A DNA stretch of 25,903 nucleotides. Origin: a virus. A program made the translations under genes and the position numbers. A model generated the notes under the pieces. That model made no database searches. It worked only from the letters and a program-made list of their open reading frames with translations, and was not told where the DNA came from. Within the stretch, counting starts at the first letter, position 1, and each line of letters opens with the position of its first letter. Below, one piece after another: positions 2,885 through 6,189 of this stretch. Where the stretch lies: UHGV virus genome UHGV-0320751. One strand, given 5' to 3'.

Positions 2885-3088
2885 ATGGACACCGTTAACG
2901 GAATGTGTTCAGACGCACCGCGTGCCAAAAAATGTAAATGCGGAAAATCACCGACAATATTCGACATGGAGAACGGGTGCCAAATCTACTGCGCTAACCA
3001 CGCTGCTGTGGCGGCCGCGAATTATCGCAGTGCGGTAACGGAGTGGAATAATCTGAAGTCTGTTAGAGAGGGAAGTCATGAATCTTGA
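2885..3088 (+). CDS. small zinc-ribbon protein, possibly Lar-family (restriction alleviation)-like
   Basis: 67 aa with CKCG...(x14)...CQIYC followed by ...AVTEWNN, resembling the Lar/RalR layout (CxxCG ... CxxxC ... AWN). GGGGG Shine-Dalgarno before the ATG. Family assignment is from memory only. Confidence 0.45.
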   Translation: MDTVNGMCSDAPRAKKCKCGKSPTIFDMENGCQIYCANHAAVAAANYRSAVTEWNNLKSVREGSHES

Positions 3089-3268: not shown

Positions 3269-3490
3269 ATGAATATGAGCACACTCGCAGACCTTATTCA
3301 TGCTGATATGGCGGAAGATGGAGCAAGGCGAAATAGGTACTGGAAATCATCAAGCCTTCCAGTTTGTGAAAGATTCAACCACAGGCCAAAACAAAAACGT
3401 AGTCGAAGAGACAAGGTGTTGAAAAAACTCATGCAAATTAACATGGCTGGTTTTGTCAGATTCGTGAGTGAAACGACTAACGGGGATTGA
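3269..3490 (+). CDS. hypothetical small basic protein (nin-region)
   Basis: ORF of 73 aa with a GGAG Shine-Dalgarno; an alternative ATG at 3275 has better spacing. Basic stretch KQKRSRRDK. Confidence 0.4.
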   Translation: MNMSTLADLIHADMAEDGARRNRYWKSSSLPVCERFNHRPKQKRSRRDKVLKKLMQINMAGFVRFVSETTNGD

Positions 3491-3491
3491 T

Positions 3492-3803
3492 ATGGACGAA
3501 TCAAGAAAGCAGTTTGAAGAATGGTTTGAAAATTACACCGGATGTGATCCTAAAAATAAAATATACGCCAATATGGTTGAGATGTATTGGCAAGCGTGGC
3601 AGGCATCGCGAGCAGCTATTGAACTGGATATCGACTGGCCAGAATCGAATGACGACTTTTGGAAAGATGGTGAAGAAGGTGCTTATGCGATGGGTTATGA
3701 GGATGGGCGTGACAAAACGGTAATTGCAGTAATGAAAGCTATCAGAGCCGCTGGAATTAAAGAGAAGAATTTCGATGAAGCAAACAATCTTCCTCCGAAC
3801 TAA
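3492..3803 (+). CDS. hypothetical protein (acidic, Trp-rich)
   Basis: ATG at 3492 with GGGGA upstream, immediately after the stop of the previous ORF; 103 aa. No family recognised with confidence. Confidence 0.5.
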   Translation: MDESRKQFEEWFENYTGCDPKNKIYANMVEMYWQAWQASRAAIELDIDWPESNDDFWKDGEEGAYAMGYEDGRDKTVIAVMKAIRAAGIKEKNFDEANNLPPN

Positions 3804-4185
3804 GCAACAACAGCAAGCCGCAATAAATGCCATCCTCGCAACACCACTCGATAAAGACAAGCCAGTCACCATCCGCATTACTGACTACAAGCGCAACCTT
3901 GACCAGAACGCAAAATTTCACGTGATGCTGGCGGATATCGCTCGTCAGGTTCAATGGTGCGGCAAATGGTTAAAACCGGAACAATGGAAGGTTTTGTTGA
4001 TCAGCGGTCATGCAGTGGCAACAAAGCAGGAAGCTGATGTTTTGCCCGGGCTTGAAGGCGAATACGTCAACATTCGCGAAAGTAGCGCGCAGATGAGCGT
4101 GAAGCGCATGGCAAGCCTGATTGAGTACACGACAGCATGGGCTATTGGTCAGGGTGTCAGATTTACCGACAGGAGGTACGAATGA
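3775..4185 (+). CDS. ninB: NinB recombination protein (Orf family)
   Basis: 136 aa, alignable to recalled lambda NinB (motifs [24 protein letters not shown] versus lambda DQNRKLWACLGDVSRQVEWHGRWL). Confidence 0.9.
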
Positions 4186-4358
4186 GACGACAGCGACGAA
4201 GCATCACCGACATCATCTGCGAAAACTGCAAATACCTTCCAACGAAACGCTCCAGAAATAAACGCAAGCCAATCCCAAAAGAATCTGACGTAAAAACCTT
4301 CAATTACACGGCTCACCTGTGGGATATCCGGTGGCTAAGACATCGTGCGAGGAAATGA
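4182..4358 (+). CDS. ninE: NinE protein
   Basis: [23 protein letters not shown]... is near-identical to recalled lambda NinE. AGGAGG Shine-Dalgarno at 4171-4176; ATGA overlap with the ninB stop. Confidence 0.8.
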
Positions 4359-5305
4359 CGATGACTGCGTATTACAACGAAATAGATCCGTATGCAGCGC
4401 AATGGCTGCGTAACTTAATTGACGCTGGAGAAATTGCCCCCGGTTATGTAGATGAAAGGAGTATTGAAGATGTCACACCAGGTGATTTGCGAGGATTTAC
4501 CCAGCACCACTTTTTTGCAGGAATCGGAGTTTGGAGCTATGCACTTAGAAAAGCAGGATGGCCAGACAACAAGAGTATCTGGACAGGAAGTTGCCCATGC
4601 CAACCTTTCAGCTCGGCAGGCAAAGGAAAAGGGGTTGATGACGAGCGGCACTTATGGCCGGCATTCTTCTGGCTTATTGAAAAATGCAATCCTGGCATCG
4701 TTATTGGCGAACAGGTTGCAAGCGCAGACGGCCTCGCTTGGCTCGACCTTGTACAAACTGACTTGGAAGGTGCGAACTACACCTCTGCAGGTACCGATAT
4801 TTGCGCTGCGAGCTTCGGTTCTCCGCACATCAGGCAGCGATTGTATTGGGTGGCCTACTCCAACGACAAATATCAACTTTCAGCCAGAGACGCGCAGGGG
4901 AATTCAGAACCTATCTGGATGCGTGAGACTAGCGGGATGGCAAACTCCTTTAGCGAACGATGCAACAGGTTCAACGCATTGCTACAGCGGAAAAGACAAG
5001 AGCGGAACCCCAAGAATCTGCTTGAAACTTCCCGGGACGGTGAAGCTATGTACCCATTACCGGTTAACGGCTTCTGGAGAGATGCAGACTGGCTTTACTG
5101 TAGAGATGAAAAATATCGTCCAGTTAGACCCGGCTCATTCCCGATGGTTAATGGCATTGCCAAAAGCTTGGGACGAGGCAAGTCCACACTGGGAAGAATG
5201 GCAAAGCGCAATCAAGATCAGCGAATTATTGGATATGGAAACGCAATCAATGCAGAAGTAGCAACGGCATTCGTGAAAGTTTGTATGGAGGTTGTTAATG
5301 CTTAG
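4355..5305 (+). CDS. DNA (cytosine-5)-methyltransferase, orphan (no adjacent endonuclease)
   Basis: C5-MTase motifs are present: FFAGIGV (motif I-like), [13 protein letters not shown] (catalytic PCQ motif IV), GEQV (ENV-like), RQRLYW (motif VIII), IGYGNAI (motif X). Start overlaps the ninE stop. Confidence 0.85.
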
Positions 5306-5474
5306 CCCACCCCAATCCATTCAATACCAGAAAGAAAGCGTCGAGCGGGCTTTAACGTGCGCTAACTGCGGTCAGAAGCTGCATGTGCTGGAAGTTCACG
5401 TGTGTGAGCACTGCTGCGCAGAGCTTATGAGCGATCCGAATAGCTCAATGTACGAGGAAGAAGACGATGAATGA
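5298..5474 (+). CDS. ninF: NinF protein
   Basis: [58 protein letters not shown] is near-identical to recalled lambda NinF. GGAGG Shine-Dalgarno at 5287-5291. The track start at 5292 is TTG. Confidence 0.8.
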   Translation: MLSPPQSIQYQKESVERALTCANCGQKLHVLEVHVCEHCCAELMSDPNSSMYEEEDDE

Positions 5475-6189
5475 GTTAATAAATGGCAATGCCATCAAAA
5501 TGACAAGCATTGAAATCGCTGAGTTGGTTGGTAAGCGTCATGACAATGTGAAACGTACCATCGAAACGCTGGCTAAAAATGGTGTTATCCGGCTTCCTCA
5601 AATTGAGGTTTCCGAAAGAATCAATAACTTAGGGTTCAATGTTCAGTACGAGCATTACGTTTTCGAAGGCGAACAAGGTAAGCGAGACAGTATTGTCGTT
5701 GTTGCCCAGTTGTCGCCGGAATTCACCGCTCGCCTTGTTGACCGCTGGCGAGAGCTTGAAGAAGCTGCGGTTAATATCCCCAAAACGCTACCAGAAGCGT
5801 TGCGCCTTGCTGCTGATCTTGCTGAGCAGAAAATGCAACTGGAAAACCAGCTCGCAATTGCCGCACCTAAAGTTGAGTTTGCCGATCGCGTTGGCGAGGC
5901 CAGCGGAATTTTGATTGGAAACTTTGCAAAGGTTGTCGGTATTGGTCCAAACAAACTGTTTGCGTGGATGCGCGATCACAAAATCCTTATTGCTTCAGGT
6001 TCCCGGCGCAATGTGCCAATGCAGGAATATATGGATCGCGGCTATTTCACAGTGAAAGAAACAGCGTTCAACACAAATCACGGAATACAGATATCGTTCA
6101 CCACAAAAATCACCGGGCGTGGTCAACAGTGGCTGACCAGAAGGCTGCTCTATAGCGGAATGCTGAAAGTAACAGGGGAGGCTGCTTAA
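5467..6189 (+). CDS. Roi-like / phage antirepressor-family DNA-binding protein (Rha/Bro-N-like N-terminus, KilA-C/ANT-like C-terminus)
   Basis: 240 aa. The N-terminus (MTSIEIAELVGKRHDNVKRTIETL) looks like a Rha/Bro-N domain. Position after ninF matches the roi gene of HK022-type nin regions. Confidence 0.75.
   Translation: MNELINGNAIKMTSIEIAELVGKRHDNVKRTIETLAKNGVIRLPQIEVSERINNLGFNVQYEHYVFEGEQGKRDSIVVVAQLSPEFTARLVDRWRELEEAAVNIPKTLPEALRLAADLAEQKMQLENQLAIAAPKVEFADRVGEASGILIGNFAKVVGIGPNKLFAWMRDHKILIASGSRRNVPMQEYMDRGYFTVKETAFNTNHGIQISFTTKITGRGQQWLTRRLLYSGMLKVTGEAA

Follow-up and report, generated by a model that had tools for sequence, protein, structure and literature searches.

A conserved +1-frame gene nested in a solitary prophage C5-cytosine methyltransferase gene and its putative role as a second subunit

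The 25,903 nt stretch of DNA analysed here (UHGV virus genome UHGV-0320751, referred to as the window) is a lambdoid prophage in which replication genes lead into the nin region, followed by Q and the lysis, terminase, head and tail genes. Between ninE and ninF it carries a gene for a C5-cytosine methyltransferase (C5-MTase), whose reading frame (frame A, product alpha) is open without interruption from 4319 to the TAG stop at 5303-5305. Wholly inside this gene and shifted by +1 lies a second open reading frame (ORF), 4452/4470-5261 (frame B, product beta, 263 aa), which had been overlooked in the first-pass annotation of this DNA. Comparison with homologues shows that beta is maintained by selection of its own and that it is homologous to parts of a C5-MTase that alpha lacks. 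The features of both frames are collected in Table 1.

Table 1. Positions of the two nested reading frames, their motifs and the flanking genes in the window
Feature	Position	Strand	Basis or remark
Alpha ORF, C5-cytosine methyltransferase large domain	4355-5305	+	PF00145, homologues, AF2, Foldseek, RefSeq
Alpha motif II, YNEID	4373-4387	+	extreme N-terminus; E9 invariant, D11 nearly so
Alpha motif I-like, FFAGIG and helix	4511-4528	+	invariant; displaced to between motifs III and IV
Alpha motif IV, CPCQPFS, catalytic Cys82	4592-4612	+	invariant; aligned to PCQ of M.HhaI
Alpha motif VI, GEQV (ENV variant, Glu119)	4706-4717	+	G118, E119, Q120 and V121 invariant; ENV of M.HhaI
Alpha motif VIII, PHIRQRLYW (Arg160, Arg162)	4823-4849	+	P157, I159, R160, R162 and W165 invariant; PQKRERIY of M.HhaI
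Alpha residues 175-234, putative passenger segment	4877-5056	+	z = 0.4 given beta; same DNA as the beta WxTPxAxD modules
Alpha conserved segment 235-279, start	5063-5092	+	overlaps the run-up to beta motif IX (from 5121); F240 to D251 invariant
Alpha motif X-like, GYGNAI, then C-terminal helix	5231-5248	+	Y294, G295, N296, A297 and I298 invariant
Beta ORF, 263 aa, +1 frame, wholly nested in alpha	4470-5261	+	ORF list, tblastn, open-frame counts, shuffles
Beta Shine-Dalgarno sequence, AAAGGAG	4455-4461	+	8 nt before ATG 4470; inside the invariant D-E-R-S-I-E-D-V of alpha
Beta conserved N-terminal block (... LRASVLRTS)	4740-4832	+	overlaps alpha motifs VI-VIII
Beta WxTPxAxD modules	4848-4970	+	GWPTPTT at 4848-4868, second module at 4935-4970; homologue alignment
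Beta motif IX-like	5121-5174	+	L219, P221, H223, S224, W226, L227, L230, P231 and W234 invariant
ninE (upstream neighbour)	4182-4358	+	PF05322, E 1.5e-43; RefSeq coordinates
ninF (downstream neighbour)	5298-5474	+	PF05810; ATG 5298 is 8 nt before the alpha stop

Two reading frames at the methylase locus

The identification of alpha as a C5-MTase, made before from the sequence alone, was confirmed by several comparisons. Alpha matches the Pfam family PF00145 with 53.8 bits (cut-off 22), the alignment covering profile positions 64-196 of 324 only, and TIGR00675 with 43.3 bits, which is under the cut-off of 100.65, with an alignment beginning at profile position 25. More than 8,000 homologues were found, the best of them aligning end to end with 55-98% identity over the full length. 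The invariance of the alpha motifs was judged in an alignment of 34 homologues, in all of which C82, E119, R160 and R162 are present, and the catalytic motifs proved to be intact, as PCQ, the ENV-like motif and RxR align with motifs IV-VIII of M.HhaI (PCQ, ENV, PQKRERIY). A Foldseek search with the AlphaFold2 (AF2) model of alpha returned M.HaeIII and M.HhaI (E about 2e-7) and C5-MTase large domains over ~170 columns.

The description of alpha as a complete C5-MTase did not hold. In its AF2 model residues 1-171 and 297-316 are predicted with confidence, including a C-terminal helix at 300-315, and the predicted local distance difference test (pLDDT) score is below 50 for residues 172-296. No recognisable motif IX was found in frame A, the region between motifs VIII and X gave no profile match, and the motif order is not the canonical one. 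Judged by its sequence, frame A encodes a genuine C5-MTase homologue, yet apparently an incomplete enzyme in that frame.

Alpha starts at motif II and continues in the order II, III, I, IV instead of having motif I first. When residues 48-74 were placed at the N-terminus in silico, the score against Pfam went up from 50.9 to 69.3 bits, with the alignment starting at profile position 5 and no longer at 64; for TIGR00675 the same move raised the score from 41.4 to 56.4 bits. As collinear profile alignment is restored and 15-18 bits are gained, the strand-loop-helix unit with motif I appears to have been transposed in alpha. According to a REBASE survey from 2018, all natural permuted C5-MTases share one topology, that of a circular permutation with its cut in the variable region (PMC5944983). 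Alpha resembles these circularly permuted enzymes (M.BssHII, M.Alw26I and others) in departing from the canonical order of motifs I to X (PMC5944983), but in enzymes of the M.BssHII type motifs IX-X precede I-VIII, whereas in alpha only the motif I unit has moved, to a place between motifs III and IV.

Frame B is open from 4452 and forms a 269-codon ORF that ends at 5261. Five stop codons lie in the 95 nt preceding it, none across 807 nt, and then two follow in the same frame; the +2 frame holds 21. Beta matches phrog_1008 (E 3e-23) and also phrog_31772 of the PHROGs collection, both labelled 'DNA methyltransferase'. A word-indexed search gave 4,998 homologues, all of them stand-alone proteins of 240-340 aa without a Pfam domain, and in an exhaustive search of 1.84 billion representatives the family amounted, at E up to 1e-3, to 14,712 representatives of clusters formed at 50% identity. 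The best 150 of these 14,712 profile matches are all stand-alone proteins of the beta type, with no relatives fused in frame among them. In the N-terminal block of beta the residues G91, S92, T93, L94, W99, K100, R114, S116 and R119 are invariant, and the copy number of the following GWxTPxAxD module varies among homologues, with whole modules being gained or lost exactly where alpha varies. The homologues of alpha differ there, at residues 175-234, by large insertions and deletions.

Both nested coding sequences are annotated as 'DNA methyltransferase' in two phage records (K1ind1 ORF28/29 and PhiXhv-28), and RefSeq, using the Prokaryotic Genome Annotation Pipeline (PGAP), annotates alpha only, as 'DNA cytosine methyltransferase'. 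In the record of Escherichia phage P AB-2017 (KY295898; L088, 22-702) the ORF in the beta frame is labelled 'putative Mte8-like protein', a name that could not be traced and that may derive from the entry name of a methylase in Swiss-Prot.

Conservation and selection in both frames

A tblastn search with the frame-B protein gave hits in 243 phage records, and the frame-A query led to the same places. Matches of the two frames coincide on the DNA of 85 loci (GenBank phages and IMG/VR), with an offset of +1 every time and an identity of 47-58% in frame A and 37-57% in frame B. The hosts include Salmonella, Escherichia, Klebsiella, Xanthomonas, Burkholderia, Pseudomonas, Vibrio and Rhodobacter, and among the phages are Salmonella epsilon15, E. 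coli K1ind1 and Burkholderia BcepC6B. Each of the 82 distinct genes has an uninterrupted +1 frame of 200 codons or more (median 88% of the gene), whereas the +2 frame reaches this length in none of the 82 and has a median longest open stretch of 56 codons.

Frame B was then compared with a null expectation obtained by permuting synonymous codons, with protein A and its codon usage being kept exactly (200 shuffles in 13 loci). The frame-B score dropped from 281-746 to 106-249 in the shuffled sequences, and the observed score was higher than all 200 shuffles in each of the 13 loci. A regional z score was derived for 16 loci by shuffling in both directions, that is with each frame kept in turn. 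Given alpha, beta is conserved from residue 46 to 240 (median z 4.3-6.5), including residues 86-135 with a z of 5.1 (range 4.1-6.9). Given beta, alpha is conserved at 1-174 and 235-316 (z 5-8). The segment formed by alpha 235-279 and beta 196-240 is under selection in both frames, with z 6.5 for beta given alpha and z 5.8 for alpha given beta. No conservation of their own was seen for beta 1-45, beta 241-263 and alpha 175-234 (z 0.1-0.6).

The last of these segments bears on the target-recognition region of ~120 aa between motifs VIII and X, which had been assigned to alpha and described as not recognisable by eye. It is indeed unrecognisable; the recognition role could not be upheld for it, as residues 175-234 have a z of only 0.4 and the match to a variable region lies in beta (E 5e-8, see below). 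With a z near the null, the middle of this region is a passenger of frame B, and its unrecognisable sequence is explained by its being conserved no further than the +1 frame imposes.

Recent substitutions and the start of beta give the same picture. In near-identical relatives most substitutions are silent in beta and non-silent in alpha (5/5, 4/5 and 4/7), and in a relative with 86% identity 33 substitutions are of this kind against 24, an excess that is the opposite of what is expected for a gene coding in frame A alone. The codon for Arg35 of alpha is AGG (26) or CGG (17) in 43 of 61 distinct loci and that for Ser36 is AGY in 46 of 61, counted separately and not as pairs; together these choices spell GGAG. 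An ATG in the +1 frame is present at D39-V40 of alpha in 50 of the 61 loci. AGG is a rare arginine codon, and the start signal of beta thus appears to be kept via the codon choice of alpha, rare AGG included. Taken together, the shuffles, the regional z scores, the recent substitutions and the start signal show that frame B is conserved beyond what frame A imposes, with dual coding and purifying selection on both frames.

With these data it is extremely improbable that alpha is one complete orphan methyltransferase and the +1 ORF merely a chance or hitch-hiking open frame without a product. The annotation of alpha alone by RefSeq/PGAP would fit such a situation, and the constraint on alpha does account for some of the similarity in beta, since the null scores of 106-249 are above zero. 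However, no synonymous shuffle reaches the observed scores, all 82 genes have a long open +1 frame and none of them such a +2 frame, the Shine-Dalgarno sequence and ATG are kept by rare codon choices, the recent substitutions favour sites silent in beta, and beta has independent homology to the single-chain enzymes' variable region.

That beta could be an artefact of mis-framed PHROGs families was also considered and rejected on the basis of the constant +1 co-location, the shuffles, the open frames and the pattern of substitutions.

Distribution of the C5-MTase motifs between alpha and beta

In order to relate the two frames to canonical enzymes, we used hhalign with a profile that covers the variable region, motif IX and motif X and was built from 31 single-chain proteins. 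For the C-terminal half of beta this gave a match to the variable region plus motif IX of single-chain C5-MTases from actinophages, with a probability of 94.8% and E 5e-8. The match of the beta family spans 136 columns and ends just before motif X, and the motif IX-like element of beta is aligned to 'RLxAAFSEWMMGWPAGW', which is located just upstream of motif X in the single-chain enzymes. The alpha family meets the same profile at the motif X end only, and weakly (E 0.15). With beta corresponding to the variable region and motif IX and alpha to the motif X end, alpha and beta seem to hold complementary parts of a canonical enzyme.

An example of a single-chain enzyme is gp65 of Mycobacterium phage Phasih (408 aa), which has in one frame the catalytic domain, LLPTPSAAD and STPQARDYKG repeats, LHPAFPEWMMGWPAGW as motif IX and GNGVVP as motif X. 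These actinophage enzymes are similar to alpha in the catalytic domain (34% identity to alpha 75-202 by tblastn) and to beta in the LLPTPxAxD repeats and 'LHPAFPEWMMGWPAGW', and their GNGVVP is equivalent to the GNAI of alpha. They differ from the window in using one frame, in the canonical order of motifs from I to X and in having no counterpart of the beta 46-125 block. The relatives of the variable-region/IX/X part of the actinophage enzymes are themselves mostly short stand-alone proteins of 100-280 aa (P0389-P0508), for example a 127-aa 'DNA methylase' of Mycobacterium phage ByChance. Split C5-MTases may therefore be common in actinophages as well, or some of these short relatives may be fragments from short contigs instead.

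The profile match also bears on the idea that beta is an unrelated overprinted gene, for instance with an anti-defence or regulatory function, for which the methylase gene merely serves as a scaffold. Overprinting is common in viruses, beta belongs to no Pfam or NCBIfam family and its structural model is mostly of low confidence. Nevertheless, we give this idea very little credence, as it has to contend with the homology that profile-profile comparison shows between beta and the variable region plus motif IX of C5-MTases, which ends where motif X of alpha begins, and with the strict co-occurrence of beta with this alpha subfamily.

The best explanation, and one that we consider likely, is an alpha-beta C5-MTase that is expressed from the nin operon as a solitary enzyme. 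The annotated ORF by itself is then probably not the whole enzyme but about half of it. Alpha would supply motifs II, III and I for binding of S-adenosylmethionine, the PCQ cysteine, the glutamate of E-Q-V, the RxR of motif VIII and the motif X-like GNAI helix. Beta would be translated from its own AAAGGAG-ATG inside alpha and would contribute the WxTPxAxD modules and the motif IX-like element, parts that would correspond to the small DNA-recognition domain found between motifs VIII and X in single-chain enzymes. As in M.EcoHK31I, the two chains would most likely assemble into one active orphan methyltransferase that needs both of them, and the enzyme would methylate a short target on the phage DNA and, if expressed in the lysogen, also on the DNA of the host.

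M.EcoHK31I, which has the target YGGCCR (Lee, Kam & Shaw 1995, as described in PMC2836561 and PMC3404938), also consists of two chains, of which beta, bearing motif IX, is read wholly from inside the gene for alpha in a different frame, alpha bearing motifs I-VIII as well as X, and the chains must associate for activity (PMC2836561, PMC3404938). When the internal beta starts in its alpha gene were silently removed, no methylation was observed, and the first 42 residues of its beta are dispensable (PMC2836561). The window is alike in having two polypeptides with beta wholly inside alpha in another frame and in dividing the motifs into I-VIII and a putative X for alpha and a motif IX-like element for beta, a likeness of architecture. 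The ~42 dispensable residues find a parallel in the unconstrained residues 1-45 of the beta described here. The alpha chain of M.EcoHK31I, with 309 aa, is similar in size to alpha of the window, with 316 aa. In M.EcoHK31I the target-recognition domain is assigned to alpha and beta is about 176 aa long, whereas the beta of the window has 263 aa and bears modules resembling a variable region, the matching stretch of alpha being an apparent passenger. Moreover, M.EcoHK31I is part of a restriction-modification system, whereas the methylase of the window is solitary in the nin region of a prophage and has no cognate endonuclease. The M.EcoHK31I descriptions consulted make no mention of a displaced motif I. 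A second two-chain enzyme is M.AquI (CYCGRG), a naturally split alpha/beta C5-MTase in which an active enzyme results from two chains dividing the motifs (PMC3404938). It differs from the window, where beta lies completely inside alpha in the +1 frame and motif X remains part of alpha.

The order of parts in the nested genes could also be read as that of one chain made by two programmed frameshifts, from alpha up to motif VIII by +1 into beta with the variable region and motif IX and then by -1 back into alpha for motif X. Such a composite is collinear with single-chain enzymes like Phasih gp65, and 12 of 53 loci carry an in-phase CCCGGGG heptamer between motifs IX and X. On the other hand, the search from motif IX to X found no in-phase slippery heptamer of the type X_XXY_YYZ in the window or in the other 41 of the 53 loci (past motif VIII, the +1 junction was checked only by eye). 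A conserved Shine-Dalgarno sequence and ATG of beta's own lie ~380 nt upstream of the putative shift site, the independently conserved segments beta 46-125 and alpha 235-279 would not be translated, and the published precedent M.EcoHK31I makes two separate chains. As slippery sites are not conserved and the segments that would remain untranslated are, a frameshift fusion was rejected as highly unlikely. The CCCGGGG heptamer lies in the beta frame at position 3445 of locus L001, 2311 of L029 and 2437 of L031 and in nine more loci, the window not being one of them, and may simply encode Ser-Pro-Gly of beta.

Some results weigh against an alpha-beta enzyme. Neither beta nor its profile gave a meaningful match to the PDB sequences, Pfam or NCBIfam, and the AF2 model of beta alone is poor, with a mean pLDDT of 41 from a 35-sequence alignment. 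When alpha 1-171, beta 127-240 and alpha 286-316 were joined, the composite gained only about 5-8 Pfam bits (53.8 to 59.0), and its alignment was not extended past profile position 195 or into motifs IX-X, a region for which the Pfam model is weak, since the C-terminus of a bona fide single-chain enzyme alone is also unmatched. Finally, alpha keeps its own conserved segment 235-279 between motifs VIII and X, which might serve as a minimal recognition element and enable alpha to act without beta.

If so, alpha by itself might be a working compact orphan C5-MTase, and beta, even if translated, would be an accessory protein acting in specificity, regulation or another pathway. This would be in line with alpha bearing every catalytic motif in addition to segment 235-279, with the failure of the composite to lengthen the Pfam alignment and with the extra conserved N-terminal block of beta (46-135), which is without counterpart in single-chain enzymes. 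Yet alpha has no motif IX and is poorly modelled at residues 172-296, and beta carries exactly those parts; beta is nested in all 82 alpha genes examined; and in the only studied enzyme of this gene layout alpha by itself is inactive (PMC2836561). We therefore regard an enzyme made of alpha alone as rather unlikely and prefer that of alpha and beta.

The usual benefit of such methylation is protection from restriction. As the methylase is solitary, we infer a role in anti-restriction or epigenetic marking as the most likely one, and the self-protection or epigenetic effect in the lysogen suggested in the first-pass annotation is a reasonable putative role.

As a lone orphan methylase this gene would be routine, and the annotated methylase gene, the nested-beta layout from M.EcoHK31I and the PHROGs families for beta are already known. 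No paper on a nested gene in phage cytosine methyltransferases was found in the literature searched. Whether the nested beta is the rule for a very large family of phage and prophage C5-MTases, with beta as a modular specificity subunit and the motif I unit of alpha transposed in a manner not described before, is evenly balanced in our judgement. If true, ~800 nt would be read in two frames with purifying selection on both, the annotation by PGAP, Pfam and NCBIfam would miss an essential subunit of thousands of enzymes, and clones of alpha only would be inactive. A recoded alpha, such as a synthetic gene with optimised codons, would no longer encode beta, and the enzyme could be misjudged as inactive. 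There is no curated model for the beta family, although its members number in the thousands, and pipelines that forbid embedded genes lose it. The long overlap on the same strand (~790 nt) is widely conserved and both ancestries are recognisable, which would make it a good system to study co-evolution of two frames, all the more as the data separate dual-constrained segments from passenger segments. The variable number of modules in beta suggests a simple route for phages to alter the specificity of methylation.

The methylase gene and its neighbourhood in the nin region

Frame A has two in-frame ATGs, at 4355 (951 bp, 316 aa) and at 4361 (314 aa, the start used in RefSeq). The first overlaps the ninE stop as ATGA (4355-4358), ninE ending at 4358. 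The second lies 2 nt past this stop, has a GAGG 8 nt upstream, which is a better Shine-Dalgarno spacing than that of 4355, and matches the homologue consensus MTAYYNEID. Of the two overlaps reported before, the one with ninF stands and the one with ninE exists only if alpha starts at 4355 and not at the RefSeq start; the genes abut with either start.

The methylase is preceded by NinB and NinE and followed by NinF, an Ant/Rha protein, YbcO, RusA, NinH and Q. As noted before, no restriction endonuclease is found near it, neither among these neighbours in the window nor in the RefSeq annotation of a prophage with 99.6% identity, and the related phage loci of the methylase are likewise solitary. 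A methyltransferase gene in a prophage without an adjacent restriction gene is what is called an orphan phage methyltransferase, and this is the situation found here. This methylase allele is present in eleven of 5,426 complete E. coli genomes, with the annotation 'DNA cytosine methyltransferase'. Matching genes from a search of a plasmid collection are of the ordinary alpha/beta type and annotated as 'DNA cytosine methyltransferase'.

Between ninF and ybcO the window has a gene for a 240-aa antirepressor of the Ant/Rha type (5467-6189). In E. coli FDAARGOS_1256, whose methylase locus is 99.6% identical, a hypothetical gene of 70 aa (L091, 3668-3880) takes its place, which by sequence comparison looks like an exchange of mosaic modules directly downstream of ninF. 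Two other ORFs of the nin region, 2885-3088 (67 aa) and 3468-3803 (111 aa), had no match in Pfam. In the tail region two short overlapping ORFs (21347-21769 and 21751-22185) are located directly upstream of an 853-aa ORF (22178-24739) that is probably the tape measure gene, and this pair resembles the tail-chaperone pair G/GT of lambda, which uses a -1 frameshift.

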